From assembly GCA_963724645.1 (NCBI GenBank), contig CAVRVJ010000003.1, forward strand, positions 1,141,074 to 1,205,073: a stretch of DNA of 64,000 nt. The letters are read 5' to 3'. This document shows, one piece after another, positions 10,756 to 37,223 of this stretch. This DNA is from an uncultured Acidobacteriota bacterium (lineage in GTDB: Bacteria > Acidobacteriota > Vicinamibacteria > Vicinamibacterales > SCN-69-37). Position 1 is the first letter of the stretch; each line of letters opens with the position of its first letter. The position numbers were made by a program, and so were the translations under genes. Under the pieces are notes generated by a model that was not told the origin of the DNA, ran no database searches, and worked only from the letters and a program-made list of their open reading frames with translations.

Positions 10756-10778
10756 CAGCCGCCTTGGAGTTGGGGTCA

Positions 10779-10945: not shown

Positions 10946-10980
10946 GCCGGGAGAGACTCGCCAGGGGGGACCTCACTTGC

Positions 10981-11328
10981 ATGTCTAGTGATCACAAGGA
11001 GACCGTCGAACTCCTCCAGGGAACGCTGGACCTGATCGTGCTGCGCGCGCTCCAGACCATGGGACCACAGCACGCCTACGGGCTGGCCGCGCGGCTCGAA
11101 CAGGTCTCCGAGAACCCTCTCCGCCTCAACCAGGGCACGCTGTATCCGGCACTGGTCAGGCTGGAGCAGAAGGGCTGGATCAAGGGCACGTGGCAACGAA
11201 CCGACACGAACCGTGAAGCCAAGTACTACGCGATCACGAGCGCCGGCCTTCGCGCGCTGGGCAAGCAGACAGAGCGCTGGCGCCGCCTGGCCGGCCTGGT
11301 CGACAGACTGCTCCTGAACGAGCCGTAG
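10981..11328 (+). CDS. PadR-family transcriptional regulator
   Basis: Intact 115 aa. LLQGTLDLIVLRAL...HAYGL...LNQGTLYPALVRLEQKGWI...W....N.EAKYY.IT..G is the classic PadR winged-helix signature. It sits 6 nt upstream of the permease gene, the arrangement typical of Acidobacteria. Confidence 0.9.
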   Translation: MSSDHKETVELLQGTLDLIVLRALQTMGPQHAYGLAARLEQVSENPLRLNQGTLYPALVRLEQKGWIKGTWQRTDTNREAKYYAITSAGLRALGKQTERWRRLAGLVDRLLLNEP

Positions 11329-11334
11329 AAGTCG

Positions 11335-16290: not shown

Positions 16291-16580
16291 GTGCCTCTCC
16301 CTCTCCAAAAGTCACAGAACCAGCAAACTCCCCCCGGATCCCGAGATTGTCCCGGGACGGCGGGCCGAGATCAAGAAGAATCCGGTCTGGCTCCAGCAGC
16401 CCGTAGTGCAGGTGCGACTGCATTCGACCCGCGCTGCATCCCGCCTGGCGGCCGGCCGAGGGGCGCCGCGCATGGCCGCGCACAGACCCGGCGGAGTGCC
16501 GCCGGCCACGCGCCTGCCGCCCCCGCGGCCCTTGCCGCGCCCAACGGTCGCGCCGTCAGCCGACTTCGTCGGCAGGGCGC

Positions 16581-16616
16581 AAGAGAAAGGCCGCCAGTCC
16601 AAAAGGACGGCGGCCC
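16581..16616 (-). terminator. rho-independent terminator of the 16666..19525 gene
   Basis: ggccgcc (16589-16595) pairs with ggcggcc (16609-16615), 13-nt loop. On the minus strand the stem is followed by tttctctt. Confidence 0.6.
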
Positions 16617-16665
16617 AAGAAGTTCGATAGTCAAGCGTGGACCTATCTTGGCCACTTACGCGGTT

Positions 16666-19525
16666 CTACTTCCCCGCCCCGGTTTCGTACAACCGCATGT
16701 TGGTCATCGACCAGCTCGGCGCGCCATCGACGGTGTCCGTCTCGGTGATGCGTACGAACTTGGCGCGCACTGGCGCAAAGGTGATCGTCGTGTGCGGTCC
16801 CGCTCCCTTGCCTTCGGCGACCGGCTTGCCCCAGGCTGTGCCGTTCATCGAAACTTCGACGCGGTAGCCGCGGGGATACGGCACGACCGGCGGTGCGGCC
16901 GGCGTCGCCGCGCCGCGCGCACCGCCACCACCGCCTCGGCCCGCCGCCGGCGAATCGAATTCGATCTCGGTCAGCATCACTGGTTGCGGCAGTTCGAGCT
17001 GAAACCACATCCCTGGTGCTTGCGGCGCCCCTGAAGTCCACGTGCTCATCGTCAACGCGACGGGCGCGCTCGTGGAATTGTGACTCGCCGTGACTTTCCA
17101 GGCCGGATCGCTCTCGATCCGCCGCGGCAGCGTGGCTTCCAGGTCCGGCAGCGTCCAGGGTGTCTTGCGATTGGCGGTCGCCGCCCGCACGCGCGCGACG
17201 TCGGCGGGCGTGACAAAGCCGCCCGCGTTCCCGAAACTCGTGCGGATGTATGACGCAACTGCCGCGATCCACTGGTCGTTGTTGGTGCCCATCGGCACCA
17301 TCACTTCCGAATAGCTCGACGTCCCCAGCGGCCCGGTCAATCCCTTCAACAACGTTTTGATCACGTAGTCGCGATGTCCATTGACGCGTGGCGATCCGGC
17401 CAGCGGCGGCGCCATCATCGCACCGGTGGTCGTGCCCGCCAGGGGCCGGCCGCGCCCATCTTCGTTGTGACATGTGAAGCAGAGAGATCCGTAGACCTCT
17501 CCGCCCTGCTGAATCTGCTGTTGCTGCTCCGGCGTCAGCACCGGGCCGCCGCGGCCGCCGCCACGGCCAGCCGGCGGTGCGAGCATCAGATCGCCGAGCG
17601 TCTTCACGCCGCGCCCGCTGTTGGCGGCCTGCGCAGTCTTCACGACGTCGGCGATATCCGGCACCTTCAGCGCATTGAGCGTGAACATGGCCTGTATCAC
17701 GACGTCAGGATCCGCGTCCTTGAGGAGCGCCCGATAGTCCGTCTCGAGCGAGCGCGTGCCGGACTTGTAGAGCGTCTCGCTCGCGCGAATCGCCTGCACC
17801 CGCATACGCGGGCTCGGATCCTTCATCTCTTCCCGCACGAGCGCGGCGTCCAGCGCGCCCAGCCCCTCGAGCGTCCACATCGCGTGGAACCGCCCGACCA
17901 GGCTGCTCGAGCTGCGCGTCATCTGCTGCAAGGCCGGCACCACCGACTTGTCCTGCTTGAGCACCAGCAGCCGCTGCGCAGTGTCTCGCCACCAGCCGAT
18001 CGGGTTCGTGAGGTGCGCGACCAGCTGCGCGGGCGTCTCGTCGCTCATGTGCGGCCAGGTCTTGTTCAATTCGATGCCCGGCACGTCCGGCCGGGTCGGA
18101 GCCGACGCCGGCGCCGTCCCGGGAATTCCCACGAAGACCAGCCGCCAGACGCGCCCGTGGTTGGTGACTTTGTCCAGCCCGTACTGCTCGATCTTCGTGC
18201 GCAGGTACGTTCCCGCGGCCGGTCCAGTTCACGTCCTGCATGATTCCCTGATACCAATCGAGGATGTAGAGTGCGCCGTCCGGCCCTTGCTTTATGTTGA
18301 TGGGGCGGAACAACGGATCGGTGCTGACCATGAACTCCGCACCGGGGTACACATTCTTGAGCTGCGTCAGCCCTTCGCTCCTGGTCACCTTCGCGCGGCG
18401 GATCAGCCGTCCGACGAAGTCGCAGAACAGCAGATCCCCGTTCATGTCGGCCGGATAGCGATCGCTTCGCACGATCTCCGGCGCGGCCGACGACGTGAGG
18501 TGGTTCAGGTTGTTGAAGGGCATGCGCACGCGCGGCGCGCCGCCCTGCATGTCGCCGATACCTGGCGCCGGATACACGATCTCGAATCCCGGCTCGAGCT
18601 GGTCCGGCGTGTTGTAGGCGCCGTACTGGATCGGCACCTCGAACGCCACGGGACCCCGCTCGCCGCCCGAATTGACGAACCACATCTTGCCGTCGTCGTC
18701 CATGCTCAGGCCCCACTCAGCGCCGCTCGATCCCGACGGCTCCCGGACGATCCCGTTCGGCGTCCAGCGGATGCGGAATGCGTTGTACGTGCTGTAGATC
18801 CAGTTGTCGAGCCCCCAGATGAGGCCGCTCTGCTCGTGCTGGACATTGCCGTCCCGTCCGCTGCCAACGCCCGTGAAGAACACCTGCCGCTTGTCAGCCA
18901 CGCCGTCGCCATTGGTGTCGGTCAGCAGGACCAGATCGTCCGAGTGCGTCTCGTTGATCAGGATGCCCTTCTCGAGGGGCAGGACCATGCGCGGCAGCAG
19001 GAGGTGATCGGCGAACACCGTATGCCGATCGAACTTGCCGTCGTGTTTGGTACTCTCGTGCATGCTCACGCGGCTGATCGGATCGAGCTGGCCGGTCGCG
19101 TCGGCGTCGCGCATGAACGTCCGCATCTCCGCAATGTAGAGCCGCCCGTCGCCGTCGAAGGCCATCGCCGCCGGACTGATGACGTCCTTGTCCTCGAGCA
19201 CGAGTTCCACGCGGTAGCCGGGAGGAAGGATGAAATGTCTGGCTTCCTCCTCTGGCGACAGCGCGACGATCGCGGGTTTCGGCGAAAAATCGATGCCGGC
19301 GTTGGCCGGATCGCCAACCATCTGGCCGCCCGCACTGCCGATGGACGGACCGCGGCCGCCCGGCTGAACGGTCCCTCGGCCGCCGCCGCGGCCGCCCGCG
19401 GGGGCCGCCGGGGGTTGGCCTTCCTGCGGCGCGTCTTGCGTGAACACGCGGAGCTGCAGACTGGTCGCGACGAGCGCCGCCGCGCAAGCGGCGGTCAGCC
19501 AGAAATACCGGGATTTCGCTGCCAT
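16666..19525 (-). pseudogene. PVC-type dehydrogenase-domain / HEAT / cytochrome c / F5/8-type-C (discoidin)-like protein, one frameshift near 18210-18222
   Basis: The ORF 17705..19525 frame carries the signal MAAKSRYFWLTAACAAALVA, then LPPGYRVELV, DGDGRLYIAEM, TNGDGVADK and PDGALYILDWYQGIMQDVNWTG. The ORF 16666..18132 frame extends upstream as AAGTYLRTKIEQYGLDKVTNHGRVWRLVF. It continues with HEAT-like repeats, GEVYGSLCFTCHNEDG (CxxCH) and a C-terminal MWFQLELPQPVMLTEIEFD...YRVEVSMNGTAWGKPV...AKFVRITE jelly-roll. Confidence 0.75.
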
Positions 19526-22444: not shown

Positions 22445-24982
22445 CTACCCGAGCCGGTTCAACATTCCTTCTTGGCGCGCGAGCCGCTGCGGCCGCTCCT
22501 GCGCAAAGCGCTGGACCGCCGCAAGAATCGAGGCGGGATCGAGATGCGCTTCCTTGATCACGTCGGCTTCCGATCCGCCGGTGAGCCACTGGTTCTGCTG
22601 GTCGGACGTCAGCGAGTACTCGTCGGTCATCGGTCCCACATTGCGCAGCGGCCACATGCGGCGGGTGCCCGTGGTCACGAACATCAGATCCTCGACCGCC
22701 TCCGGTGGCAGCACGGCATGCCGGTACGCCTCGGGCTGGCGGTCGAACAACTCTTCGCTGATGGCCGCGATCACTTTCACATTGATGCCGGCCGCGTCGA
22801 GCTTCGGGAAGAGACTCACGAGATTGACGGTGGAGCTCGATCCCTGCGCGACCACGTACCCGTGGCGGGGTTGGCCAGGGGCGAAGTCACGGATGACGTA
22901 CAACCCCTTGGCAGCGGCCTTGAGATCCGTGTCGGCAAACCTGGCACGATCGGCGACCGCAAAGTCCGGGCGCGCGACCTCGACCACGATGATCCCGACC
23001 TTCTTCTCACGTGCGGCAACTTCGGCCGCCGCAAAGTAGCCGGGCGCGACGTCGTTGTAATCCCAGCAACTCAGCGTGATGACCTGGCCGCGCGGGAACA
23101 GCTTCCACACCTGGGGCGAAAAGATCCCGAAGTGCGTGCGGGCGTCGGCCGCGGTCTCCGGACCCGAATGGCCCGCCAGGATGTGCAGCACGCCCGTACG
23201 GAACTTGCTGTCCTGGTTCTGCTGGCTCCAGACACGCGCGGGCAGGTACATGAGCGGTGTGAACGCGCCGTACGTGCCGCTCCACGCCCACACGCCGGCG
23301 AACTTGTCCGGATCGACCGACGCATTCTGGCCGACGAGGCCGATCGCGGTCGAGGCGTTGCCCGCCTCCTGAATGGCGGCCTTCAGCCGCGTGCCCCAGG
23401 GATTCTTTTCGGGATCGTAATGGCCCCACAAGCTGCCGTGTTCCAGGTTGATCGATTCCGACAAATCGGCCGCGATCGTCAGCACACGGTTGCCGGTGAC
23501 GACGTTCGCCCACTTGATGACTTCCGAGATTGCGCGGCGTGTGCCGGCCACCTCGCCGGGCTTCCGGAAAAGCGCGATCTTGACGTCCTTCTCAGCGCCC
23601 GAGTCCGGGTTCTTCGCCTTGACGGTGACCGGCTCTTCGGGGAGACTCGCGACGCGCAACCGGTCGTCGAGAAACGGATCACGCGTGACGTCGATCCGGA
23701 GCTTGAAATCGTCCTTGACGGTGTCGCCAATCTCGACGAGCCGATCCGCCAGCCAGTCGCCCAGGCCGTTCTTCTCGAGCACGGACATCGCGACGTCCAT
23801 GTTCTTCTTGAACTGGATCAACCGCTCGCGCGTGTCGGTGACCGCGCCCTGCCGGATGCCCTCGAACTGGACGCCGTACCGCTGTTCGAACGTCTCGGCG
23901 AGCGAGACAAAGTACGGCGAGTTCATCTTCATCGCATACGGGTGGCTCGGGTAGCCGACCACCTGATCGCACGTCGGCGAGATCTTGCCGTGCGCGGCGC
24001 AGGGCCAGTATCCCTTGATCGTCTTGCCGATGGCGATCATGGGACGCCGATCCTTCGGGTCCCAGTCCTCCATCGTCTTCAGCACGCCGACCACCTGGTC
24101 GTAGTCGTGGCCGTCGGGAATCGTGAACACGTTCCAGCCGTACGACTTCCATTGATCGACGATTCGGTAGCCGTCGAACTTGCTGTCGATCACGCCGCCG
24201 ATCAGTGAATCGTCAATCCCGGCGTTGTTGTCCGAGAACAGGATCCGCAGCCGCTTGCCGACCTTGAGCGCGAGCGCCTGCGTCTTGATCTCCTGGGCGT
24301 GACCGGCGCACATCGCGAACTCGCCCTCGAACGCGATGATCTTCGGAGAACCGACCGGCGCGCCGGCAAAGTCCCAGAACGCCGCTTTCCCGGCGGCGAG
24401 CGCGATGCCCACGCCGGACGGCCCGCCGTTCACGTCATTGGTGACGTCGGTCGATTCGATGTGTCCCGACAGCGCACGAATCCCGCGTCCCTTGGCCTCC
24501 GCAAACAGCGGGTGGTCGGCCAGCCCGTGCTCGGCGAGCAGCGTTTTCAGCGCGCCCGCGCCGCGCCGGAAGCCAAGCGCGTCAATCGGAAGCATGGCGA
24601 CGTGCGGGTCCGCGAAATAGCGGCGATTCCCGGTCTCGTGGAACTTCCGATCCAGCGCGTGGCCCATGATCATCCACAGCGCGTAGCAGGTCGGCGCGCA
24701 ATGCCCGGCGGCCAGCATGAACTTGTCGCCGTAGGGATGTTTGGGACGCCGGTAGTCAAACCGCAAGCCGCCCATTTCGGGCCCGGCGAGGTGCGTGGCG
24801 ACGTTATAAGGCGTGTAGGCGAGCGGTCCGCCGAAGTGCCCGGTCTGCGCGTAGTTACCAAGCAGCACGAGCGTCATGCAGGTCAGGAATCCGACGTCCT
24901 CCAACTGCTCTTTGTCGTACTGCAGCGTCGAAGAAACGGGGGAATCGGGGGATGTCTGGACGGCCATCTTGCTGAGAAACAC
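22445..24982 (-). CDS. transketolase-like thiamine-diphosphate enzyme, unusually long (845 aa) with a divergent cofactor motif
   Basis: Intact ORF. It aligns by eye to the transketolase N-terminal signatures: TGHFGGPLA (GHxG), DKFMLAAGHCAPTCYAL, SGHIEST...NGGPSGVGIALAAG, FSDNNAGIDD (the DDNxISIDG region) and DGHDYDQV. The canonical GDG metal/ThDP motif position reads FEGEF. Confidence 0.65.
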   Translation of the reverse strand: MFLSKMAVQTSPDSPVSSTLQYDKEQLEDVGFLTCMTLVLLGNYAQTGHFGGPLAYTPYNVATHLAGPEMGGLRFDYRRPKHPYGDKFMLAAGHCAPTCYALWMIMGHALDRKFHETGNRRYFADPHVAMLPIDALGFRRGAGALKTLLAEHGLADHPLFAEAKGRGIRALSGHIESTDVTNDVNGGPSGVGIALAAGKAAFWDFAGAPVGSPKIIAFEGEFAMCAGHAQEIKTQALALKVGKRLRILFSDNNAGIDDSLIGGVIDSKFDGYRIVDQWKSYGWNVFTIPDGHDYDQVVGVLKTMEDWDPKDRRPMIAIGKTIKGYWPCAAHGKISPTCDQVVGYPSHPYAMKMNSPYFVSLAETFEQRYGVQFEGIRQGAVTDTRERLIQFKKNMDVAMSVLEKNGLGDWLADRLVEIGDTVKDDFKLRIDVTRDPFLDDRLRVASLPEEPVTVKAKNPDSGAEKDVKIALFRKPGEVAGTRRAISEVIKWANVVTGNRVLTIAADLSESINLEHGSLWGHYDPEKNPWGTRLKAAIQEAGNASTAIGLVGQNASVDPDKFAGVWAWSGTYGAFTPLMYLPARVWSQQNQDSKFRTGVLHILAGHSGPETAADARTHFGIFSPQVWKLFPRGQVITLSCWDYNDVAPGYFAAAEVAAREKKVGIIVVEVARPDFAVADRARFADTDLKAAAKGLYVIRDFAPGQPRHGYVVAQGSSSTVNLVSLFPKLDAAGINVKVIAAISEELFDRQPEAYRHAVLPPEAVEDLMFVTTGTRRMWPLRNVGPMTDEYSLTSDQQNQWLTGGSEADVIKEAHLDPASILAAVQRFAQERPQRLARQEGMLNRLG

Positions 24983-25076: not shown

Positions 25077-27904
25077 TCAGGAGGCCGTGGACCGGGCGTC
25101 CGGACGTTGATCGCCGCCGCCAAAGCTGAGACGCTCCGGAACGGTCCCGCCGGCGGTGACCCTGACCGCGCAGTACTTGAACTCCGGGATCTTGCCGAAT
25201 GGGTCGAGCACGGGATTGGTGAGCATGTTCGCCGCCGCCTCGTAGTAGCAGAACGGCACGAACACCGCGCCGCGCGGCATCCCGTCGTCGGCGCGCGCGT
25301 AGAGCGAGATGCTGACCGCGCCGCGAGGCGATCGTCAGCGTCGCCGCCCGGCGCGACGCCGAGCGCATCGAGATCGAGCGGATGCACCGAGGCGACGGGC
25401 TCCGGCTCGATGGAGTCGAGCGCCGAGGCGCGGCGCGTCATCGATCCGGTATGCCAGTGTTCGAGCTGACGGCCGGTGATCAGCACCAGTCGGATAGTCC
25501 GCGTCCGGGCGCTCGGCCGCCGAGATGAGATCGGCCGGCACGAACTGCCCGCGGCCCGATCGGGGTCGGGAAGCGGTCGATGAACACGACCGGGTCGCCG
25601 GGGTCGCCTTCCTTCACGCAGGGATATGTGACGGACGACTCTCGCTTCGAGGCGCTCCCACGTGATGCCGGCAATCGAGTCCATGCACGCGCGCATTTCG
25701 TTGAACACGTCGCGCGGGATGCGTGTAGCGCCAGTCGAGGCCCATGCGGCGGCCGAGCTCGGTGAGGAGCCAGAAATCCGCCCGCGCATCGCCAGGCGGC
25801 TCGATCGCCTTGCGTCCGAGCTGCACCATGCGATCGGTGTTGGTGACGGTGCCGACCTTCTCCGGCCACGCCGTCGCCGCGAGCACGACGTCGGCGAGGT
25901 AGGCGGTCTCGGTGAGGAAGATGTCCTGCACGACGAGATGATCGAGCGCGGCCAGCGCTTCGCGCGCGTGATCGACGTCCGGATCCGACATCGCCGGGTT
26001 CTCGCCCATGATGTACATCGCCGCGGATCTGCGTGCTCTTCGCGGCGTTCATGATCTCGACGACGGTCAGGCCGGGATCCGGATCGAGCTGCGGTCTTCC
26101 ACAGCGTCTCGAACCGCTGCCGCGCCTCGGGCGCGTTCACGCGCTGATAGTCGGGATAGAACATCGGGATCAGGCCCGAGTCGGACGCGCCCTGCACGTT
26201 GTTCTGGCCGCGCAGCGGATGCAGGCCCGAGCCCGGCTTGCCGATCTGACCGGTCGAGAGCGCCAGCGCGATCAGGCAGCGCGCGTTGTCGGTGCCGTGC
26301 ACGTGCTGCGAGATGCCCATGCCCCACAGAATCATCGAGCCCTTCGACGTCGCGTAGAGCCGCGCGACCTCGCGGATCGTCTGCGCGTCGATGCCGCAGA
26401 TCGGCGCCATCGCCTCGGGCGAGAACTTCTTCACGTTCTCGGCGAGCGCGGCGTAGCCGGACGTGCGATCGCGGATGAACGCCTCGTCGACGAGCCCCTC
26501 CTCGACGATGACGTGCAGCATCGCGTTGAGCAGCGCGACGTCGGTGTCGGGGTTGAACTGCAGGATAGTAGCGTGGCGTGCCGCGCCAGATCGCTGCGGC
26601 GCGGATCGGCGACGATCAGCTGTCGCCCCGCCTTGGCCGCGTTCTTGATGAACGTCGCGGCGACCGGATGGTTCACCGTCGGGTTGGCGCCGATGACGAA
26701 AATCACTTCGGCGTTCGCGACGTCGCGCACCTGGTTCGACACCGCGCCGGAGTTGATGCCTTCCATCAGCGCGGCGACGCTCGAGGCGTGGCAGAGGCGC
26801 GTGCAGTGATCGACGTTGTTGGATCCGAAGCCCGTGCGCACCAGCTTCTGGAAGAGATACGCCTCTTCGTTCGTGCCCTTCGCCGAGCCGAAGCCCGCGA
26901 GCGCGCGCTTGCCGTAGGTGTCGCGGATGTCGCCGCAGCCCGCTGGCCGCGACGTCGAGCGCTTCTTCCCACGTCGCCTCGCGGAAAACGTCCTGCCAGT
27001 TCTCCGGATCGACGGCGAAGTCCTTGTGCTTCGGCACGCCCGGCTTGCGGATCAGCGGCTTGGTGAGCCGGTGCCGATGCTGGACGTAGTCGAAGCCGTA
27101 CCGGCCCTTCACGCACAGGCGGCTCGAGTTGGCGGGGCCGTCCTTGCCCTGCACGTAGAGGATCCTGTTGTCCTTGACGTTGTAGGTGAGCTGGCAGCCG
27201 ACGCCGCAGTACGGGCACACCGAGTCGACGGTCTTCTCCGGCGCGATCTTCGCGACGTCGCGGGCCGGCATCAGCGCGCCGGTCGGGCAGGCCTGCACGC
27301 ACTCGCCGCAGGCGACGCACGTCGAGTCGCCCATCGGGATCGTCGAGGTCGAACACGATCTTCGACTGGCCGCCGCGGAACGCGTAGCCGATGACGTCGT
27401 TGACCTGCTCCTCGCGGCAGGCGCGCACGCAGCGCTTGCACTGGATGCAGGCGTCGAGGTGCACCGCCATCGCCGGATGCGAGAGGTCCTCGGCCGGCTG
27501 CGGCCGCGCGCGGAACCGCGGCTTGCCGATCGCGCATCTTCTTCGCCCAGAGATCGAGCTCGGAGTCGCAGCGTGTAGGACGTCTCGGGCACATCCGACA
27601 GCAGCAGCTCGAGCGACATCTTCTGGCTGGTCACGGCGCGCGCGCTGTTGGTCGTGACCTCCATGCCGTCCTTGGGATAGCGGCAGCAGGACGGCGCCAG
27701 CACGCGCTCGCCCTTGATCTCGACCATGCACGTGCGGCAGTTGCCGTCGGCGCGCATGCCCTCCATGTAGCAGAGGCGCGGGATCTCGATGCCGTGCTCG
27801 TCCGCGGTCTGCGAGGATGCGTCTGGTCGGCGCGGCTCGACGACCGTCTTCCCGTTCAGCGTGAACGTCACGGTCGCAGGCACGCTCGTGTTCTTCTGAT
27901 GCAT
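25077..27904 (-). pseudogene. fdhA: NAD-type formate dehydrogenase alpha subunit (NuoG-like Fe-S N-terminus + molybdopterin oxidoreductase), at least 12 frame changes
   Basis: The recognisable peptide is spread over 13 segments in three frames. Examples: MHQKNTSVPATVTFTLNGKTV...RLCYMEGMRADGNCRTCMVEIKGE (2Fe-2S). AVHLDACIQCKRCVRACREEQ and CVACGECVQACPTGAL (4Fe-4S). VCPYCGVGCQLTY. FGSNNVDHCTRLCHASSV (Cys, not Sec). ILWGMGISQHVHGTDN. HPLRGQNNVQGASD. MYIMGENPAMSDPD. LITGRQLEHWHTGSMTRR. FVPFCYYEAAANMLTN...PEFKYCAVRV. Confidence 0.8.
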
Positions 27905-29554
27905 CAGCTCGACTTCCCGCGGGAAAGTACTTCAGCACGGAGAGCACCGGGTTGGGCGCCGCCTGGCCGAGGCCGCAGATCGAGGCGTCCATCATCGCCT
28001 GCGACAGCTCCTGCAGCAGCGGCTCGTCCCAGCCGCGCGCGTTCATCAGCTGCAGGGCCTTTTCCGTCCCGACGCGGCACGGCGTGCACTGGCCGCACGA
28101 TTCGTCGGCGAAGAACTTCATCACGTTGCGCGCGGCGCGCGGCCGCCGAGTCCTTGTCGGACAGCACGACGATCGCCGCCGATCCGATGAAGCAGCCGTA
28201 CGGCGTCGAGCGTGTCGAAGTCGAGCGGGATGTTCGCCATCGACGCCGGCAGGATCCCGCCGGACGCGCCGCCCGGCAGATACCCGTAGAGCGTGTGGCC
28301 CTCGAGCATGCCGCCGCAGTACTCGTCGATCAGCTCCTGCAGCGTGATCCCGGCGGGCGCGAGGTGGACACCCGGTTTCTTGACGCGCCCGCTCACCGAG
28401 AACGAGCGCAGTCCCTTGCGGCCGTTCCGCCCGTGGCCGGCAAACCAGGCCGGGCCCCTTCTCGAGGATGTCGCGCACCCAGTGCAGCGTCTCCATGTTG
28501 TGCTCGAGCGTCGGGCGGCCGAACAGCCCGACCTGCGCGACGTACGGCGGGCGCAGTCGCGGCTCGCCGCGCTTGCCCTCGATCGACTCGATCATCGCCG
28601 ACTCTTCGCCGCAGATGTAGGCGCCCGCGCCGCGTCGCAGGTGGAATCGCGGAATCGCGCAGGGCGGGTCGGCGCGAAGCGCCGGCGAGCTCCCGCTCAG
28701 GATCGCGCGGCAGCCGTGGTACTCGTCGCGCAGGTAGATGTAGACGGCGTCGATGCCGACCGCCCACGCGGCGATGATCGCGCCTTCGAGAAAGCGGTGC
28801 GGATCGCGCTCGAGGTAGTAGCGATCCTTGAACGTGCCCGGCTCGCCCTCGTCGATGTTGATGGCCATCAGCCGCGGCGCCGGCTCCGCGGCCACGAGCT
28901 TCCACTTGCGGCCGGCGGGGAAGCCGGCGCCGCCAAGGCCGCGCAGCCCCGAGTCTTCCATCAGCGCGATGACGTCCTCGGCCGTTCGCTCGCCGCTGAC
29001 GCACGCCGCCGCGAGCGCGTACCCGCCGGCCGCGCGGTACGCCGCGTAGTCGACGTGGCCCGGGCGTGACCGCGCGCGTTCGACGTCGGGGTGCGCTGAC
29101 GGCGCCCGGCCGCCACGAGCGCGACGACCTTCTTCGACGTGGCGTGCGGCACCGGATTCTGGCCGACGACGGCGACCGGCGCCGTTTCGCAGCGGCCGAC
29201 GCACGGCGCGTGAAGCACGCGGACGTCTGTGGCCGAGCGAGCGCCGGCAGCGCTTTCGAGCAGATCGCTGCGAGCCGGCCAGCTCGCAGGCGATCGAATC
29301 GCAGACGCGAACGGTGATCGCGCGGCGGAGCCGTGTCGCCTTCCTTCACCACGTCGAAGTGGTGATAGAAGGTCGCCACTTCGTACACCTCGGCCATCGC
29401 CATCTTCATCTCGGCGGCGAGCGCGACGAGATGCGCGGCCGGCGAGGCAGCCGAACCGATCCTGAATCAGGTGCAGGAGCTCGATCAGGAGATCGCGCCG
29501 CCGCGGCGCGTCGCCGAGCAGCGCGACGCACCTCGCTCGCGCGCCTCGAGGCAT
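27904..29554 (-). pseudogene. formate dehydrogenase beta-type subunit (NuoE-like 2Fe-2S domain fused to NuoF-like NAD/FMN/4Fe-4S domain), at least 7 frame changes
   Basis: Segments: LLIELLHLIQDRFGCL. AEVYEVATFYHHFDVV. VLHAPCVGRCETAPVAVVGQNP (NuoE-like). SGLRGLGGAGFPAGRKW. INIDEGEPGTFKDRYYLERDPH. GAGAYICGEESAMIESIEGKRGEPRLRPP. ESCGQCTPCRVGTEKA...ICGLGQAAPNPV (NuoF-like). Its stop TGA overlaps the fdhA ATG (TGATG at ~27902-27906). Confidence 0.75.
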
Positions 29555-29722
29555 CGACGCGCGCGTCCTTTCGGCGTCGCGCGCACGCGTCCCGCTTGCC
29601 GCCGGCTGAGGAGACGCGCAGATTGGCGCTCCGTCGTGCGATCGCTGTCAGTCATGAGAGCCTGGCGGACCACCCGTCATGCTAACATTTTGAGTGGCGG
29701 CGCTCCTCCGCGCCGATCATCC

Positions 29723-29977
29723 ATGCACGTTGAATTTCTCGGCATTCCGCGCGAACGCGCCGGCATCTCCGAACTCAGAGGTGCACGCGGAGACGCTCGG
29801 CCAGCTGCTCGCCACGCTGGCCGCCGCTTCCCGGCCTTGCCGGAACTCATCGCGGCGGACGGGCTGCACCGTCCATCGCGGCCAATCTGAACGGCGACGC
29901 GTTCGTCAGCGATCCGCGTACGCCGCTGGCCGCACAACGACCGGCTGCTGCTCCTGTCGGCCGACGTCGGCGGCTAA
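29723..29977 (+). pseudogene. MoaD/ThiS-family sulfur-carrier-like protein ending in Gly-Gly, 4 frame changes in 255 bp
   Basis: The peptide is MHVEFLGIPRERAGISEL / EVHAETLGQLLATLAA / FPALPELIAADGLH / IAANLNGDAFVSDPRTPLAA / DRLLLLSADVGG*. Start and stop are in the same frame, but the middle segments are in other frames. Confidence 0.6.
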
Positions 29978-29980
29978 GCC

Positions 29981-31743
29981 GTGCAGCCGATGCCCATGCG
30001 GCTATCACGGCTGAGTATCTCCGCATCGACGTCTCGCGCGGCCGCGATCGAGCGGGTGCCGCTGTCAGAGAACGTGCTGCGGCAGTACATCGGCGGCAGC
30101 GGCCTCGGCGCGCGGCTGCTGCTCGACGAGGGCGGCGCGACGGCTGATCCGCTTCTCGCCCGACGCGCCTCTCGTCTTCGCCTTCAGCCCGCTGGTCGGC
30201 AGCTCCGCTCACCACCTCCGCGAAGTTCGCCGTCGTCAGCAGAGCCCGCTGACCGAGCGGTTCAACGACTCGCTCGCGAGCAGCGGCTTTGCCCTGGCCG
30301 GCAAAGCGCTGCGGCTGCGACGCCATCGTCATCGTTGGCCGCGCCAGCCGGCTGTCCGTGCTGTCGTCGATCGACGACGGCGAGGTGCGGCTGGAGCCGG
30401 CGGAAGAGATCCGCGGCGCGGACGTGTCCGGCGACACCGAAGAGACGGCTGCGCGCCCGACTCGGCGCCGACTACCGCGTCGCGTCGATCGGGCCCGCCG
30501 GCGAACGCGCGGTCCGTTACGCGACGATCTCGCACGACGGGCGGCACGCCGGGCGCGGCGGCAGCGGGGCCGTGCTCGGCAGCAAGAACATCAAGGCGAT
30601 TGCGGTGCGCGGAACGCAGCGGTGCGAGTGGGCGCATCCGCGCGAGCTCACCGAGTTGAGCCGCGATCTGTCCGAGCGATCGTTCGGCCCGGCGACGGCG
30701 AAGTACCGCGAGCTGGGCACAGCGACGAACCTGCTGACGTTCAATCGCTTCGGCGCGCTGCCGACGCGCAATTTCCAGACCGGGACGTTCGAGGAGGCGG
30801 CCAACCTCTCGCCGGAGCAGCTGAGCGTCCGGCACGCGACGCACGCGCGCGAGCTGCGTGGCGTGCACGATCGGCTGCGAGCACATCTACTCGCTACGAA
30901 GTCGACGGCATGGGCGTGCGCGTGGAGTACGAGAGCCTGTTCGCGCTCGGCTCGCTCTGCGGCGTCGGCGACGGCGACGCGGTGCTGCGCGCGTCGCAGC
31001 GGTGCGACGAACTGGGGCATCGACACGATCAGCACCGGCGGCACGATTGCGTTCGCGATGGAATGCGTCGAGCGCGGCTTGCTCGACGAGCCGTGGCTGA
31101 CGTTCGGCAGCGGCGAGGCGCGTGCTGCGGGCGATCGATCTGATCGGCCGGCGCGAAGGCGTCGGGCAGCTCCTGGCGGAAGGGAGCCGGCGCGGCCGCG
31201 CGGGCGATCGGGCAGGGCAGCATCGCGTTTGCGCCGCAGGTGAAGGGCCTCGAGATTCCCGGCTACGAGCCGCGCGCGCTGCAGACGATGGCGCTCGGGT
31301 TTGCGGTCGGCGCGCGCGGCGCCGATCACAATCGCAGCGGCGCCTACGAAGTGGACTTTTCGGACAAGGTCGATCGCCGGCACGCGACACTCGATTCGGT
31401 ACGGCTACGCGATCGAGACCGAGGACAGGGCGGCGCTGATGGACTCGCTGATCCTGTGCAAGTTTCTGCGCGGCGTGTTCACGACTTCTACAGCGAGGCC
31501 GCCGACATGCTGCGCGCGGTCACCGGCTGGGACGTCACGGCCGACGAGCTTCGCGAGACCGCGCGGCGCATCGTCGCCGCCAAGCGCGAGGTCAACCTGC
31601 TGGCCGGCTGGACCCGCGAGGAGGACACGCTGCCCGAACGCTTCCTCGACACGCCGCTCCCGAACGATCCGGCCGCGGCGCTCACGCGCGATCGCCTGCA
31701 GGAGCTCGTCGCGGAGTACCACCGTCAGCGTGCAGAACTCTGA
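29981..31743 (+). pseudogene. aor: aldehyde:ferredoxin oxidoreductase (tungsto/molybdopterin AOR family), many frame changes
   Basis: Segments: YLRIDVSRG / IERVPLSENVLRQYIGGSGLGARLLL. DYRVASIGPAGERAVRYATISHDGRHAGRGGSGAVLGSKNIKAIAVRG. KYRELGTATNLLTFNRFGALPTRNFQTG. GIDTISTGGTIAFAMECVERGLL. KGLEIPGYEPRALQTMALGFAVGARGADHNRSGAY. The C-terminal part is intact in ORF 31240..31743. Confidence 0.8.
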
Positions 31744-32384
31744 AGTCCCGCCAGCGCGAGCGCGGCCTGATAGTCCTCCCGCGTGTTGAGGTTCCGCAAC
31801 GTTCGCAGATCCGGATCGACGCCGATCATTTCCTCGGCGCGTCACGCGCCGCGTGCGCACTGCATCGAACAGGAACACCGGCCGCAGACGGTCATGCGCC
31901 AGCAGCGCCTCGACGTGTGGCAGCGTCGTCGCGCCGGTAGACCGCCGAGAGCGGATGCGCGAACCCGTCGATTTCCATCACGGCGATGTCGTAGTCGCCG
32001 AGCAGTCGATCATGCGCGCGACGAAGCCGGGCACGAGCAGCGGCACGTCGCAGCTGGTGACATAGGCGGCGTCCACCCTGCGGGCAGCGCTTTCAGGCCG
32101 GCGCGCAAGCCCTCGAGCGGGCCGCGTCCCTCGCGCTCGTCTCGCGTGACGATCACGCCGGCACGGCAGCTCGGGCAGCGCTGATCGACCGCGGCGACAG
32201 CCACAATCGGCGACACGACGGTGCCGAGCAGCCGCACGACGCGCTGCAGCATCGTCTCGGGGCCGAACGGCAGCAGCGCTTTGGCCGTGCCCATGCGCGT
32301 CGACTTGCCGCCGCACAGCACGATTCCACCCGCAGCGCGACCTCGTGCCGCACCGTGCGCGCGGCCGCCGCGGCCGGTCGTCAT
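31725..32384 (-). pseudogene. mobA: molybdenum cofactor guanylyltransferase MobA, at least 3 frame changes
   Basis: GIVLCGGKSTRMGTAKALLPFGPETMLQRVV...VTRDEREGRGPLEGLRAGL (ORF 32010..32432 frame). YVTSCDVPLLVPGFVARMI (ORF 31978..32316 frame). RPVFLFDAV...EEMIGVDPDLRTLRNLNTREDYQAALALAGL. The 3' end overlaps the aor 3' end by about 19 bp (convergent). Confidence 0.75.
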
Positions 32385-32388
32385 GGCG

Positions 32389-34318
32389 TCATTCCCAGGC
32401 GGACAGCGCATCGCGCGTGGCCGGCTCCGCAAGCAGCGCCTCGAACGCGACCACGCCGGCCGCTCGGCTCGCGTGCTTCGGCACGATGAAGTCGTAGTGC
32501 TCGTGCTGGACCGGGCAGGAAGCCCAGACCGGCGCTGTGCACGCGACGGTGTCGAGCGTCACGCCCCAGTCGGCGCGTCCCTGGACGACGGCGGCGGCGA
32601 CGGCGTTGTGATTTCGCGGCTGGACTGCGTAGCCCGGCGGCCTGCGCGCCGCCGAGCAGGCGATCGATCAGCGCGCGCGTGCCGCTTCCCCTGATTGCGA
32701 TTGACCATCACGCACGCCGGATCGCGCATCGCGGCGCGACGGCCTCGTCCGCCGCACGTCCTTCGAAGCGAGCGTCGCCACGCGAAAGACAACGCCCTGC
32801 AGCCGGCCGTAGCCGGGAATCAGCGCCAGCGCGGCGGTCAGGAACGGCCGGTTGTACTCGCCGGTCTCCGGATCCAGCAGGTGCATGCCCGCGACGTCGC
32901 ACTCGCCGCGGCTGCGCCGCTTCCAGCCGCCGGTGCTGCCGACGGCCAGGAACTTCGAGCGGACGCCCTGCCGCTCGCAGACGGCCCAGCAGATAGTCGA
33001 GCCCAATGCAGTGGCTGCCGATGACCACCAGATCCGCCAGCCTGCAGAGTCGCGCCCCAGCAGCTGCACGTCGACGACCGTGCCCGCCTGCGACGATCTC
33101 CTCGTGGCGGCCGATCGTCGCGAATCCGTCGGCGCGGCTGAACGTCGTGACGCTGCCCGAGCCTTGCCCCATCGGGTAGGCTGCGAGCGACGAGGCCGTC
33201 CTCGCTCCTCGGCGCTGACCAGCCCGACCAGCAGATATTCGGTTCGGCCGATCTCGCTGTTGACTTTCACGGCCAGTCTGCGCCTGCACCACGGCTCGCC
33301 CCTCGTCGCCGTGTCCCGCCATGGACCGCAGCACCGGCGCGACGAACTCGTGAAACGTGAAGATCGCCGACGTGGGAAAGCCGGGCAGCACGACGACCGG
33401 ACGGCCGCCGGTTGACCGCGAGGCAGATCGGCTTGCCCGGTTTGAGCGCCACACCGTGCGCCACGATGCCCGGATCGGTGAGCTCGGCGACGACGCGGTA
33501 CGAGACGTCGCCCGCGCCTTTGCTGGTGCCGCCCGACAGCAGCACGACGTCGGCGAGCGCGAGCGCCTCGCCGAGCTGCGCCCGCAGCGCCGGCGCGTCG
33601 TCGCGCGTGATGCCGAGCCGACGCGGCTCGCCGCCCAGTTCGCGCACCGCGTCGGCGAGCACCTGTGCGTTCGAGTCGTAGACGTGCGCCGGCCGCATCG
33701 CGCTCGCCGGGCGGCGATGATCTCGTCGCCCGTCGAGAGAATGGCGACGATCGGCCGCCGCCAGACGTCGACCTCCGCCACGCCGATCGCGGCCAGCACG
33801 CCGGTGTCGCGGCTCGTGAGGAGGCTGGCCGCGGCGCAGCACCGTCTCGCCGGCGGTGATGTCGGTGCCGGCAAACGAGACGCCGCTGCCGGCGTCACGG
33901 CCCGCGCGATCCGCAGCTCCCCGGTCGTACGTCGGCGTGCTCGACCATCACCACGGCGTCTGCGCCGCGGGGCATCATGCCGCCCGTGGCAATCGAGAGC
34001 GGCCTCGCCGCGGCCGGACGATCGTCGCCGGGCACGACGCCGGTGTGAATCATCTCGTCGCCGAGGCGAACGACGCGCGGCGCCTCCTCAGACGCGCCGA
34101 AGGTGTCTTCGCGCCACGACCGCGAAGCCATCGACGTTGGCGCGGTCGAACGACGGCACGTCCACGGGCGAGACCACGTCGGCGGCCAGCACGCGGCCGA
34201 GCGCGGCGTCGAGCGGAACCCGCTCGACGCCGCGCGGCGCCAGATCGAGCGCCGCGCGGAATCGCCGCTCCGCCTCGTCGCGGTCGAGGACCTGGAGGAA
34301 CTGCTCCTGCTCAGGCAT
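32389..34318 (-). pseudogene. moeA: molybdopterin molybdenumtransferase MoeA fused to a C-terminal periplasmic-binding-protein-like domain, many frame changes
   Basis: MPEQEQFLQVLDRDEAERRFRAALDL...VPLDAALGRVLAADVVSPVDVPSFDRANVDGFAV. IATGGMMPRGADAVVMVE. VAILSTGDEI. VVLLSGGTSKGAGDV. VAHGVALKPGKPI. VVLPGFPTSAIFTFHEFV. The PBP-like part is DLVVIGSHCIGLDYLL...DVAGMHLLDPETGEYN...HYDFIVPKHASRAAGVVAFEALL. Its stop lies 4 nt before the mobA ATG. Confidence 0.75.
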
Positions 34319-35543
34319 AGAGCCAGACGTCCACGTCGGCGCCGGCCGGAAAGCCTTCGCTGTCGTCGCGCGACGATCACGAAGCCGTCGGCCCGGGTCG
34401 TCGACGACAGCACCGAGGCGCCCGCCGACCGAGAGCGGCTCACACGACCGTCGGCGACTGTCACGCGCGCGTAGTCGAGACGGCCGATCGGCGAGCTGAT
34501 CTTCCGCGCGAGGCGGCGCGCGGATCAGCGCGGTACGGCCACGCCTGTGGTCCGTCCACCAAGGCGCGCGAATCGCCCGGCCGGCAAAGAAGTCGTAGGC
34601 GCAGAGGCTCGAGACCGGATTGCCGGGGAGCAGGAACACCAGCCGGCTGCCGATGCGTCCCAAGCCCGGTCGGGCTGCTCGGGCCGCATGGCGATGCCGT
34701 GCACGGCCAGTTCGCCGTGCTCCGCCACGAGCACCGGCGCCAGGTCTTCGATTCCGACGCTCGAGCCGCCGGACACGATCACGACGTCCGCATCGGCGCG
34801 GAGCGCCTCGAGGATCGCGCCGCGGTTCGTCGCGGACCAGGCCAGGAAATCGACCGAGCGCGCCATCGCGCTCCGCAAGCGCCGCCAGCATCGGGCCGTT
34901 CGCGTCGGCGATGCGAGAAGCCGTGCGGCGGCGATGCCCGTCGGCAGCAGCTCATTGCCGGTGACGACCAGGCGCACGCGCGGCCGGCGCATGGACATGG
35001 ACCTCGCCGAGGCCGATGGAGCTGAGCAGGCCAAGATCCTGCGGCCGAAGGACGCGGCCGGCCTCGAGCAGCTGTCGCGCCGCGTCGATGTCCTCGCCGC
35101 GCCGGCCGACGTGCTTCCCGGGCGAGACGCTGGCGAGCGCGGCGATGCGGCGGCCACCGGCAGGATCCGGCTCGACCCACTCGGCGGGCAGCACGGCGTC
35201 GCTGCCCGCCGGCATCGGGGCGCCGGTCATGATCCGCACGGCTTCGCCGGCCGCAGACCACACCGGCGAACGCGAATCCCGGGAAGCGCATCGCCGATCA
35301 CCGTCAAGCGCGAGTCGGTTGTACGGCGCTCGCGCCTTCCGTGGACGCCGCCACCACGGCGTAGCCATCCATCGTCGACCGATCGAACCCGGGCACGTCG
35401 CACGTCGCTGACGATGGGAGAGGCCAGGACGCGACCGGCGGCCGCGCGGAGCGGGACCTGTTCGGCCGGGAGCGGCGGCAGATGAGCGGTCGAGCCAGGC
35501 CAGGGCGCTGCGCCACCGTGTGGCGCCCTGCGAAGCCCTGCAT
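34311..35543 (-). pseudogene. moeA: molybdopterin molybdenumtransferase MoeA (second copy), many frame changes
   Basis: DVPGFDRSTMDGYAVVA. VRIMTGAPMPAGSDAVLPAEWVE. KHVGRRGEDI...LRPQDLGLLSSIGLGEV. RVRLVVTGNEL. ADVVIVSGGSSVG. HGIAMRP. LVFLLPGNPVSSLCAYDFFAG. FPAGADVDVWLYA*. Its stop overlaps the next moeA start by 8 nt. Confidence 0.75.
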
Positions 35544-35607
35544 CCGAACATCGCGCGATGCACGCCGGTAGTCGTCGCCCACAAGTGCCCGAGGGACGAG
35601 ATCGATC

Positions 35608-37077
35608 CTACTGGAAGAGCTTGCTCGCGAGCGCGACGGTCCGATAGACGCCCCAACCGAGCGGCAGGCCCACGAGGGCCCACGCGATGACGACCAGTCC
35701 CCAGTGTCCCGCGGGCGCACCGGACACGGCCCGCGGCGCGGCGCCGACCGACGCGGGCTTCGCGTCGGCCTTCAGCGTAAACAGGCTCGCCGGCACCGGC
35801 CGCACGAGCAGGTTGCAGATCAGGCCGGCGGCGAGAAAGCCGACGAGGATGTACATCGTCACCGAGTACGGGATGTGCGCCTCTCGCATGCCGTTGACGA
35901 GGAAGGGGCCGAGCACGCCGGCGGTCGACCAGGCCGTGAGCAACCGGCCGTGAATGGCACCGACGTTCGCCACGCCAAACCGATCGGCCAGATAGGCGGG
36001 AATCGTCGCGAATCCCCCACCGTACATGGTCAGGATGACCCCGAAGATCAACACGAACAGGGCGAGGCTGCCCGTGGCGCCGGCCAGCGGCGCAAGCGCA
36101 TAGAGCGCCATCCCGAGCGTGAAGAACACGGAGTAAGTCACTTTGCGTCCAATCCGATCGGACAGCGACGCCCAGAAAAACCGGCCGCCGATGTTGAACA
36201 GACTCAGCAGGCCGGTGAATCCGGCCGCTTCGGATGCCGTCACCCGCCCTTTGAAAATCTCCTGAATCATGGGCGACGCGATTCCCAGGACGCCAATCCC
36301 GGCACTCACGTTGAGGCACAGCACGCCCCACAGGAACCAGAACTGCGGCGTTTTCCACGCGACACTGACCGGCACCGAACCCGCGTCGGTCGCCGCCTTC
36401 ACGTCTGCCGGCGGCGTCCAACCCGCCGGTCTCCAACCTGGTGCGGGCAGGCGGTAGCCGAACGCGCCGGCCGTCATGGCCACGAAGTAAAGGACGCCCA
36501 TGACGAGAAAGGTCTCTTCGACGCCTACGGATGTGGGCGTGGCGAAGTGCTTCATCAGGACGTCGGCCAGCGGCGAACCGATCATCGCGCCGCCGCCAAA
36601 TCCCATGATCGCCATCCCCGTCGCCATTCCGCGGCGGTCCGGAAACCATTTGATCAGCGTCGATACCGGTGAGATGTAGCCAAGACCCAGACCGCAACCG
36701 CCGATCACACCCGAGCCGATCCACAGCATCCAGATCTGGTGCAGGTGGATCCCGATCGCGGAAATGAAGAACCCGCCGGCCCAGCAACACGCCGCAACCA
36801 TGCCCGCCTTCCGCGGGCCTTCGCGCTCGACCCAGGCGCCAAACAGGGCCGCCGACGATCCAAGGAACACGAAGAACAGCGTGTACATCGCGCCGAGCGT
36901 GAGGACCGACCAGTCCCCCGGCGCAGACTTCGTGATGCCAATCGCGTGGCTCAGCGGCAGCCAGAAGACGCTGAATCCGTACGCCATGCCGATCGACAGG
37001 TGCACGGCGAGGGCGGCCGGGGGCACCAGCCAGCGGTTGAACCCCGGGGGAGCGATCGTTCGCGTTTTTGACAGCAT
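35608..37077 (-). CDS. MFS transporter, oxalate/formate antiporter (OFA) family
   Basis: Intact. The chosen start is MLSKTRTIAPPGFNRW at 37077. Motifs include AYGFSVFWLPL, GAWVEREGPRKAG, WIGSGVIGGCGLGLGYISPVSTLIKWFPDRRGMATGMAIMGFGGG, GRFFWASLSDRIGRK and GGGFATIPAYLADRFG. The ORF-track extension to 37191 was not used. Confidence 0.8.
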   Translation of the reverse strand: MLSKTRTIAPPGFNRWLVPPAALAVHLSIGMAYGFSVFWLPLSHAIGITKSAPGDWSVLTLGAMYTLFFVFLGSSAALFGAWVEREGPRKAGMVAACCWAGGFFISAIGIHLHQIWMLWIGSGVIGGCGLGLGYISPVSTLIKWFPDRRGMATGMAIMGFGGGAMIGSPLADVLMKHFATPTSVGVEETFLVMGVLYFVAMTAGAFGYRLPAPGWRPAGWTPPADVKAATDAGSVPVSVAWKTPQFWFLWGVLCLNVSAGIGVLGIASPMIQEIFKGRVTASEAAGFTGLLSLFNIGGRFFWASLSDRIGRKVTYSVFFTLGMALYALAPLAGATGSLALFVLIFGVILTMYGGGFATIPAYLADRFGVANVGAIHGRLLTAWSTAGVLGPFLVNGMREAHIPYSVTMYILVGFLAAGLICNLLVRPVPASLFTLKADAKPASVGAAPRAVSGAPAGHWGLVVIAWALVGLPLGWGVYRTVALASKLFQ

Positions 37078-37223
37078 GGGGAGACTGGGAGCCTGCGAGG
37101 TCGCGAGCCTGGAAGTCTGGAAGCCTGGGAGTTTGAAGCTGCTGAGTTGAGACGCCTGGGGCTGGGGACCGGTCGACCCGCCTCGACCCAAGCCTCCCGC
37201 CCCAAGCCCCGAGCCGTTCTTGA

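Follow-up and report, generated by a model that had tools for sequence, protein, structure and literature searches.

The shifting reading frames of a 10.5-kb block of genes for formate dehydrogenase, aldehyde oxidoreductase and the molybdenum/tungsten cofactor (positions 25077-35543) are best explained as an artefact of consensus building and not as a feature of the organism's DNA. We assign a probability of about 0.88 to this reading, in which the genes are intact and a mixed pile-up of reads is the presumed local cause. The block lies in a window (the whole stretch of DNA analysed, 64,000 nucleotides) that has the appearance of a long-read metagenome contig from a Vicinamibacterales-like acidobacterium of soil.

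Frame disruption in the block

A first-pass annotation of this DNA had described seven consecutive genes that can be read only by hopping between frames, and the frame plot, the frame tracker and the ortholog alignments all bore this out. The moaD-like gene and aor lie on the plus strand and the other five on the minus strand. The seven genes and their two neighbours are as follows.

22445-24982, minus strand: transketolase-like gene (845 aa), a single intact ORF; left edge of the putative error patch
25077-27875, minus strand: fdhA, formate dehydrogenase alpha subunit (Fe-S clusters and molybdopterin domains); 14-17 insertions, 0 deletions, no in-frame stop
27904-29620, minus strand: NuoE/NuoF-like diaphorase subunit of formate dehydrogenase; about 13 insertions, 1 deletion
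29723-29977, plus strand: MoaD/ThiS-like small sulfur-carrier gene; 2 insertions and 2 deletions, that is, 4 frame changes in 255 bp
29990-31790, plus strand: aor, aldehyde:ferredoxin oxidoreductase family, a tungsten/molybdenum pterin enzyme; about 12 insertions, 2 deletions
31737-32343, minus strand: mobA-like molybdenum cofactor guanylyltransferase; 2 insertions, 2 deletions
32384-34316, minus strand: moeA-PBP, a fusion of moeA and a PBP_like domain (molybdopterin molybdotransferase-like); 18 insertions, 6 deletions
34314-35543, minus strand: stand-alone moeA; about 16 insertions, 3 deletions
35608-37077, minus strand: MFS transporter of the oxalate/formate antiporter family, a single intact ORF with Pfam MFS_1; right edge of the putative error patch

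The expected Pfam sets scored above gathering thresholds in the corrected translations of aor (AFOR_N and AFOR_C), the mobA-like gene (NTP_transf_3), stand-alone moeA (MoeA_N, MoCF_biosynth and MoeA_C) and moeA-PBP (MoeA_N, MoCF_biosynth, MoeA_C and PBP_like). The FdhA, NuoEF and ThiS families were assigned via domain-bearing orthologs with 88-89% identity, the domains of the NuoE/NuoF-like subunit being 2Fe-2S_thioredx, Complex1_51K and NADH_4Fe-4S. In a frameshift-aware alignment the fdhA product showed 85-89% amino acid identity to the FdhA proteins of L002 and L083. Identity to an intact ortholog was 88% for the NuoE/F-like product (563 aa, L083), 91.6% for the aor product (578 aa, P0121/L083) and 86% over the full length for the moeA-PBP product (641 aa, P0242). 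The moaD-like product was 89% identical to an 84-aa ThiS-family ortholog of L083, and the mobA-like product was aligned to the orthologs of L083 and L085. All peptide motifs that had been quoted in the first-pass annotation were located in the block: CTRLCHASSV at 26776-26805(-), GAGAYICGEESA at 28596-28631(-) in the NuoE/F-like gene, GADHNRSGAY at 31318-31347(+) and, by six-frame translation, the terminus ...SADVGG of the moaD-like product at 29957-29974(+).

The block contains approximately 96 frame-breaking indels, each of 1 nt, or one per ~110 bp, compared with roughly one indel per 8 kb in the window outside the block; its indel density is thus ~75-100 times the background. A GC3 frame plot and a codon-likelihood frame tracker detected 62-78 frame changes within 25077-35543, and essentially zero in eight control genes outside the block. 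Insertions and deletions per gene were counted by frameshift-aware alignment to intact orthologs (for stand-alone moeA, against the MoeA pieces of L085) and sum to ~80 insertions versus 16 deletions (binomial P = 2e-11). The earlier figures of at least 12 frame changes in fdhA, at least 7 in the NuoE/F-like gene and 4 in the moaD-like gene are correct as lower bounds. An insertion-only pattern holds for fdhA, which in a DNA alignment of seven sequences showed 17 window-specific inserted bases and 0 deletions. The moeA-PBP gene has 6 real deletions, and the pattern is therefore restated as a 5:1 bias towards insertions. As had been noticed from the sequence, there were no in-frame stops in any block gene (0 in ~3,300 aligned codons of all seven genes). 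Neither deletions of 2 nt or more nor IS elements were found in the block, and gene lengths are preserved.

The disruption is sharply bounded. The error-laden interval (~25130-35510) matches the interval 25112-35553 that is homologous to L001, a public long-read MAG contig (CAVYBC010000026.1, contig_7870, 656 kb). The impression that the block is richer in GC than its flanks proved right, with 0.707 in the block versus 0.647 in the remaining window and a step at both edges. To the left, the transketolase-like gene showed no frameshift relative to its 87%-identical L081 ortholog and is covered by near-identical short-read contigs up to position 25073. The transporter to the right had been called an OFA formate/oxalate-type protein; it does belong to the oxalate/formate family and is intact, but its best match is the L-lactate-type MFS profile (NCBIfam SfMCT, 313.6 bits, versus 152 bits for TIGR00890). 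While both neighbours are intact as described, the remaining window is not free of lesions, since isolated frame breaks occur at ~18214, within 11611-14000 and in the regions 4885-8091 and 59515-61423. The break at ~18214 is a +1 in a GGG run, the textbook form of a long-read indel error.

Independent sequence and the origin of the indels

Short-read contigs from other samples, some of them from other species, lack inserted bases of the window. Contigs with at least 93-96% likeness omit one base at 25315, 27336, 31931, 32433, 32511, 34680 and 35507, and homologous contigs with at least 85% likeness omit one base at 26020, 26565, 27534, 27569, 28208 and 34370. Except for 32433, all of these sites (12 of 13) lie within 4 nt of an insertion site predicted from the protein alignments. 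A 151-bp contig from an independent wetland sample (X23; 35491-35642) runs from moeA into the flank with 1 mismatch and 1 gap (99% identity). It bridges moeA and the flank, and hence the right junction exists in nature.

Related Acidobacteria, assembled from short reads, have the block in intact form. In L083, fdhA, nuoEF, moaD, aor and mobA are intact at 85-86% nucleotide identity; the contig JGI 3300041967 shows the entire gene order of the block intact, and L002 is intact too. Domain content and gene order of the L083 and JGI contigs match those of the block, with 77-92% amino acid identity. Compared with the intact modules of Vicinamibacterales and other Acidobacteria, which combine an NAD-linked formate dehydrogenase (FdsA-like alpha subunit and NuoE/F-like diaphorase) with AOR and MoeA/MobA/MoaD proteins, the copy in the window differs only by its indels. 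The neighbours of the module vary between genomes.

A second genome has a broken block. In L001, read by ORF tiling, we counted 18 insertions, 4 deletions and no stops, all limited to the homologous block, and 9 kb of flank is intact; the GC content of this contig is only 0.57-0.64. The positions of its lesions differ from those in the window, as only 1 of 5 coincides, which is the level expected by chance. L085 also has fragmented block genes.

The first-pass annotation had offered indel-type sequencing or assembly errors concentrated in extreme-GC DNA as one of its two readings. The error itself is supported by the contigs without the extra bases, the 80:16 ratio and the lack of stops, but the proposed cause is not. 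With a GC content of 0.681 fdhA has at least 17 insertions, whereas the 3.2-kb gene at 4885-8091, with a GC content of 0.675, has at most one break, and GC as the cause is thereby ruled out. Homopolymer slippage is ruled out as well, since only 12 of 60 insertions extend a homopolymer, versus 52% expected (P = 4e-7). No slippery or other common motif is shared by the ~96 sites. Among the 48 inserted bases unlike both neighbours, 30 are a synonymous alternative of the adjacent base (40% expected; P = 0.0015), and the corresponding test at the protein level gave 16 of 22 by manual count, compared with a simulated null of 0.446. At the DNA level there was no enrichment for codon-slot position (49 of 60 versus a null of 0.82), and the idea of wobble doublets was rejected at this level because the enrichment vanished once equivalent gap placements were allowed. 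The synonymous-allele and protein-level results (P about 0.001-0.007) support a mixed template moderately.

Nanopore assemblies are known to suffer from indels that shift the reading frame (PMC9262707), and frameshift errors are commoner in soil ONT assemblies (PMC13087279). The block has in common with indel errors of long-read (nanopore or PacBio) assemblies and MAGs that 1-base indels break the ORFs of otherwise normal proteins and that short reads and orthologs restore the frame. Classic long-read errors, however, lie in homopolymers and are spread genome-wide, whereas those of the block are confined to one 10.5-kb module, are depleted in homopolymers and show the 5:1 excess of insertions. 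With a consensus of collapsed strains or mixed templates the block shares the restriction of errors to a segment where several templates can align. It also shares the inserted bases that are often synonymous alternatives of their neighbour, and an allele that is ~5% diverged in other samples while the flanks are identical: in P12 samples the flanks were matched at 99-100%, but the block by only two long contigs at 94-95%. Such a consensus does not account for the deletions of the block, and the second haplotype within it is presumed.

The local cause is probably that reads of mixed origin piled up on a module found in many genomes. The module is common to co-occurring soil bacteria at 75-88% nucleotide identity with different neighbours in each genome, so that reads of other strains or species would be recruited to, and pile up on, the module alone. 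Polishing of such a pile-up would place alternative bases side by side. This would account for the insertion bias, for the avoidance of homopolymers and for edges that fall where homology between genomes ends. Tandem placement of alleles leaves the 16 deletions unexplained. The transketolase-like gene is also conserved in relatives (80-87% amino acid identity) and yet clean, and simple cross-recruitment thus needs something more, e.g. length or nucleotide identity.

Alternatively, the artefact could have arisen through thin support, a strain-variable island or gap having been filled from one or a few unpolished long reads. The block has sharp edges, and among the known errors of long-read assemblies are regions without read support (PMC13087279). 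Near-identical contigs of at least 151 bp in four P12 runs numbered 22 on the flanks and 0 in the block (P = 2e-8). Coverage of the block edges in P12 is too sparse to display either a native or an alternative junction. Furthermore, 31-mers of the aor-moeA half occurred in none of the indexed runs. On the other hand, errors of raw long reads comprise substitutions and many deletions and are concentrated in homopolymers, unlike the block, which has background levels of substitution at invariant residues, the 5:1 bias and the homopolymer depletion. L001, an unrelated MAG, has its errors in this very block too, which points to a property of the locus and not to chance low coverage. We regard thin support as possible, though clearly less probable than a mixed pile-up.

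A chimeric misassembly, in which the homologous block of a GC-richer organism was joined between acidobacterial pieces, might explain the GC step at both edges. It would also fit the nearest relative of the fdhA DNA, which is L003, a MAG labelled Burkholderiales (82.7%, versus 78% for L001 and L002). Moreover, the gene order shared with L081 and L082, the nearest relatives of the flank, stops at the transketolase-like gene. As this synteny breaks there, it was dropped as a test of insertion between conserved neighbours. The X23 contig crosses the right junction, however, the aor-moeA half has relatives in acidobacterial contigs only, and a chimera alone would not produce ~96 indels. A chimera is therefore very unlikely.

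Coding constraint beneath the indels

Relative to the intact L083 ortholog, the frame-corrected genes gave a dN/dS of 0.13 (0.11-0.16 by gene), close to the 0.06-0.12 of ortholog-ortholog controls. Judging from these corrected sequences, the block genes are under purifying selection. When near-invariant columns were compared with 120 functional orthologs per gene, 1 of 300 columns deviated in AOR and 5 of 288 in MoeA-PBP, in both cases within the range of the functional orthologs. Neutral decay would look different: at an assumed 10 substitutions per indel, after bacterial mutation-accumulation spectra, it predicts ~54 changes at the 300 AOR columns and ~31 stop codons. The genes beneath the indels are almost certainly intact.

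The second reading of the first-pass annotation, a real and very recent coordinated decay of the Mo/W enzymes along with the genes that mature their cofactor, is not borne out. All seven functionally linked genes are affected while the adjoining genes are spared, the GC contrast resembles that of an acquired island, and L001 provides a second genome with a broken block. Nevertheless, the corrected alignments gave no decay signal: nonsense codons, larger deletions and IS elements are absent, dN/dS is low and invariant residues are normal, although ~96 neutral indels should bring hundreds of substitutions with them. The usual mutational bias of bacteria is towards deletions, opposite to that of the block. 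In addition, orthologous blocks are intact, the inserted bases are absent from independent contigs, one of which spans the junction, and the lesions of L001 lie elsewhere. Mycobacterium leprae and recent symbionts do contain genuine pseudogene clusters with many adjacent frameshifted genes; these also show nonsense mutations, deletions of all sizes, IS elements and raised dN/dS, of which the block has none. Decay is thus highly improbable.

It is even harder to credit that the indels are really in the DNA, whether as an insertion-biased, non-homopolymer burst on an acquired island that preceded any substitutions or in genes decoded by an unknown route. Tolerance of real indels through unconventional decoding, by mass recoding or RNA-level removal of nucleotides, has in its favour only that the protein sequences between the shifts are perfectly preserved, and can practically be dismissed: programmed frameshifting uses one or a few conserved slippery sites shared by orthologs, whereas here there are ~96 sites with no common motif, orthologs with uninterrupted frames and contigs without the extra bases. 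We know of no bacterial system of this kind.

Consequences for the metabolic reading of the genome

The block is best read as a data-quality warning and not as gene decay. Contigs of long-read metagenomes can hold sharply bounded patches with ~1% indels amid good sequence, and this fault recurs, in the same widely shared module, in at least one public MAG (L001). Because such patches differ from the homopolymer type of error, homopolymer-aware filters will miss them; an excess of insertions combined with the absence of stop codons and with intact invariant residues serves as a quick diagnostic. Taken at face value, the sequence would imply the very recent loss, in a soil acidobacterium, of formate dehydrogenase, a W/Mo aldehyde oxidoreductase and the genes for their cofactor maturation. 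Pipelines that count pseudogenes or score metabolism would accordingly, and wrongly, record formate and aldehyde oxidation as lost.

A frame-broken Mo/W-cofactor block between intact neighbours

The coding frame switches every 60–300 bp within the block at 25077–35543 (GC3 frame plot). A codon-likelihood frame tracker counted 62–78 frame changes there and end effects only in eight control genes. Together with frameshift-aware alignments, these analyses reproduce the frame-hopping described in the first-pass annotation, every family motif that it quoted was found in the block, and its GC difference was borne out (0.707 in the block versus 0.647 in the remaining window). The two flanking genes, described there as intact, each keep one frame throughout (GC3 frame plot):

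22445–24982, minus strand, transketolase-like gene
35608–37077, minus strand, MFS transporter

The transporter had been assigned to the OFA formate/oxalate type, but it scores far under the cut-off of the oxalate/formate models. Its best score (35608–37191, minus strand) is for the L-lactate MFS transporter SfMCT, 313.6 bits against a cut-off of 320, and it bears a small C-terminal 'MFS_OXA_tail' domain.

On frame-corrected translations, Pfam supports AOR (AFOR_N plus AFOR_C), MoeA, the MoeA-PBP_like fusion and the MobA-like transferase. FdhA, the NuoE/F-like subunit and the 84-aa MoaD/ThiS-like protein were named from 88–89% identity to annotated intact orthologs. Only moaD-like and aor lie on the plus strand and the other five genes on the minus strand, which corrects the earlier description.

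Lesions were counted with a frameshift-aware dynamic programme that aligned intact orthologous proteins (from contigs L002, L083 and L085, and the 641-aa MoeA-PBP ortholog P0242) with the window.

One-base insertions and deletions per block gene (frameshift-aware alignment)
fdhA, 14–17 insertions, 0 deletions
NuoE/F-like, 13 insertions, 1 deletion
moaD-like, 2 insertions, 2 deletions
aor, 12 insertions, 2 deletions
mobA, 2 insertions, 2 deletions
moeA-PBP, 18 insertions, 6 deletions
moeA, 16 insertions, 3 deletions

Summed over the block, the lesions are approximately 80 insertions and 16 deletions, all of one base, or one indel every ~110 bp, with no in-frame stop among the aligned codons of the seven genes. 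A seven-sequence DNA alignment of fdhA showed 17 inserted bases specific to the window and no deletion within the gene. Against the 86%-identical DNA of L083, the window has 60 single-base extra columns and 13 missing ones, compared with 4 and 4 in an intact-versus-intact control. Homopolymer extension accounts for just 12 of these 60 extra bases (52% expected, P = 4e-7), and insertions are seen most often in the contexts G[C]G, T[C]G and C[G]C. These results confirm that the lesions are truly present in the sequence as supplied.

Consensus error and gene decay

The flanks occur at 99–100% identity and 2–4x depth in several soil and wetland short-read metagenomes. Short-read contigs of 93–96% likeness or better omit one base at 25315, 27336, 31931, 32433, 32511, 34680 and 35507, and homologous contigs (85% or better) do so at 26020, 26565, 27534, 27569, 28208 and 34370. 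For twelve of these 13 positions, protein homology had independently placed an insertion no more than 4 nt away, and none of the listed contigs spanning a predicted insertion site keeps the extra base. A 151-bp contig from the wetland run X23 spans 35491, within moeA, to 35642 in the flank and differs from the window by a single mismatch and a single gap, the gap at 35507; therefore the right junction is real in nature and the extra base is not.

Recent co-ordinated decay of the module, the other reading of the first-pass annotation, is contradicted by selection, the absence of stops, retained invariant residues and intact relatives. Against L083, dN/dS is 0.11–0.16 per gene and 0.13 overall (0.06–0.12 between intact orthologs). 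The window departs at 1 of 300 near-invariant AOR columns (120 orthologs) and 5 of 288 MoeA-PBP columns, both inside the ortholog range. Neutral indels would predict ~54 changes at the 300 AOR columns and ~31 stop codons in the block, where 1 and 0 were observed; this expectation assumes ~10 substitutions per indel, our own choice from published bacterial mutation-accumulation spectra and not the result of a tool. In the short-read JGI contig L083, mobA, fdhA, nuoEF, moaD and aor are full ORFs, and fdhA and nuoEF are intact in L002, a MAG contig. A 46.9-kb JGI contig carries moeA, moeA-PBP, aor, moaD, nuoEF and fdhA at full length in the window's order, differing by a 180-aa gene where mobA would be and one extra aminotransferase gene.

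The block lesions are thus almost certainly consensus errors. The first-pass annotation had suggested sequencing or assembly error in extreme-GC DNA; the lack of stops, the dN/dS and the contigs without extra bases uphold the error and not its cause, since fdhA (GC 0.681) has at least 17 insertions and a 3.2-kb gene of near-equal GC (4885–8091, 0.675) at most one frame break.

Isolated breaks across the window number approximately one per 8 kb, as expected for long-read assembly (PMC9262707, PMC13087279):

4885–8091, minus strand, long DUF7133, NHL and HEAT ORF, with a cytochrome c domain in another frame (ORF 4941–5888, minus strand)
11611–14000, plus strand, MacB_PCD/FtsX ABC permease, three successive ORFs (11611–12105, 12093–13622, 13629–14000)
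16666–19525, minus strand, DUF7133/cytochrome c/F5_F8 gene, two overlapping ORFs with an extra G in a GGG run at ~18214
59515–60783, plus strand, PMT_2/TMTC-like membrane glycosyltransferase part, overlapping the TPR part in a different frame
60602–61423, plus strand, TPR-repeat part, overlapping the PMT_2 part in a different frame

The break at ~18214, in the flank, is a homopolymer error of the kind classically made by long-read sequencing; the ortholog in L081, a relative of the flank, has 956 aa. The permease counterpart in L081 has 823 aa; when aligned with a paralog of 37% identity, the window copy appears to change frame ~3 times. A cytochrome c domain expected at the C-terminus suggests one break near 5766–5888 in the 4885–8091 gene. 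The PMT_2 and TPR parts probably belong to one TMTC-like gene that a single frameshift near 60.6–60.8 kb has split.

Recurrence and possible origin of the errors

The public contig L001 (CAVYBC010000026.1, Terriglobia MAG MFD04967.bin.1.142, contig_7870, 656 kb) comes from an unrelated genome, with ~76% nucleotide identity in the block. Its FDH/AOR/Moco block (1–11492) carries at least 18 insertions plus 4 deletions that break the genes, and no stops, whereas its 9-kb flank is intact (ORFs of 616, 1007 and 584 aa); therefore the artefact is recurrent and deposited in public data. A locus-limited, insertion-biased pattern in two unrelated genomes suggests an interaction between some property of the locus and the assembly process. 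The error-laden interval (~25130–35510) coincides with the stretch homologous to L001 (25112–35553). Window position 29522 (nuoEF-like, ortholog residue 51) and L001 7046 share an extra base at one ortholog residue, a coincidence at chance level by rough estimate (about 0.26).

The long contig L085 (ERZ25039464 contig_84951), which shares its ENA accession series with L081 and L082, has runs of broken-up genes at 3249–7879, 8786–10008 and 15832–17056 (MoeA in two pieces, GSDH in three, pterin/pABA genes in many); its MoeA-PBP and MobA genes, between these runs, are intact.

The module is widely shared. AOR and MoeA-PBP each have at least ~8,000 database proteins at E ≤ 1e-50, the best 120 matches being at least 73–77% identical; nucleotide identity of the module to other contigs is 75–88%, and fdhA plus nuoEF reach 10–100x the flank depth in metagenome contigs. 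Module neighbours differ in every genome examined and internal gene order is kept, but the position of mobA varies (window versus L083, L084, L085, L081 and JGI 3300041967 contigs). For fdhA DNA, L003, from a MAG labelled Burkholderiales, is closer to the window, at 82.7% identity, than the Terriglobia MAGs at 78%. The module has the look of a mobile or frequently rearranged unit, and this may account for its higher GC.

We infer that reads from foreign strains or species would align to the module only, giving a heterogeneous polishing pile-up there, and that a consensus caller penalising mismatches above gaps may record the two alternatives one after the other. Among inserted bases unlike both neighbours, 30 of 48 would give a synonymous codon if put in place of an adjacent base (40% expected, P = 0.0015), and a protein-level test gave 16 of 22 by our own count (simulated null 0.446); a DNA-level codon-slot test was without power. 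The P12 short-read samples yield long block contigs at 94–95% identity only, the flanks being at 99–100%, and none of 22 near-identical contigs of at least 151 bp falls within the block (P = 2e-8). The two synonymous tests and the P12 contigs hint at such mixed templates, which leave the 16 deletions unaccounted for; the transketolase-like neighbour is conserved at the protein level too, yet clean. A block patch left unpolished through thin coverage is a live alternative, although neither the absence of substitution errors nor the recurrence in L001 fits it well.

We recommend taking all seven block genes as intact and regarding the block as an FDH/AOR/Mo-W-cofactor module of the ordinary kind carried by soil Acidobacteria. 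The biology itself is of low interest; the value of the finding is its warning that long-read MAGs can contain clustered indel patches not driven by homopolymers.
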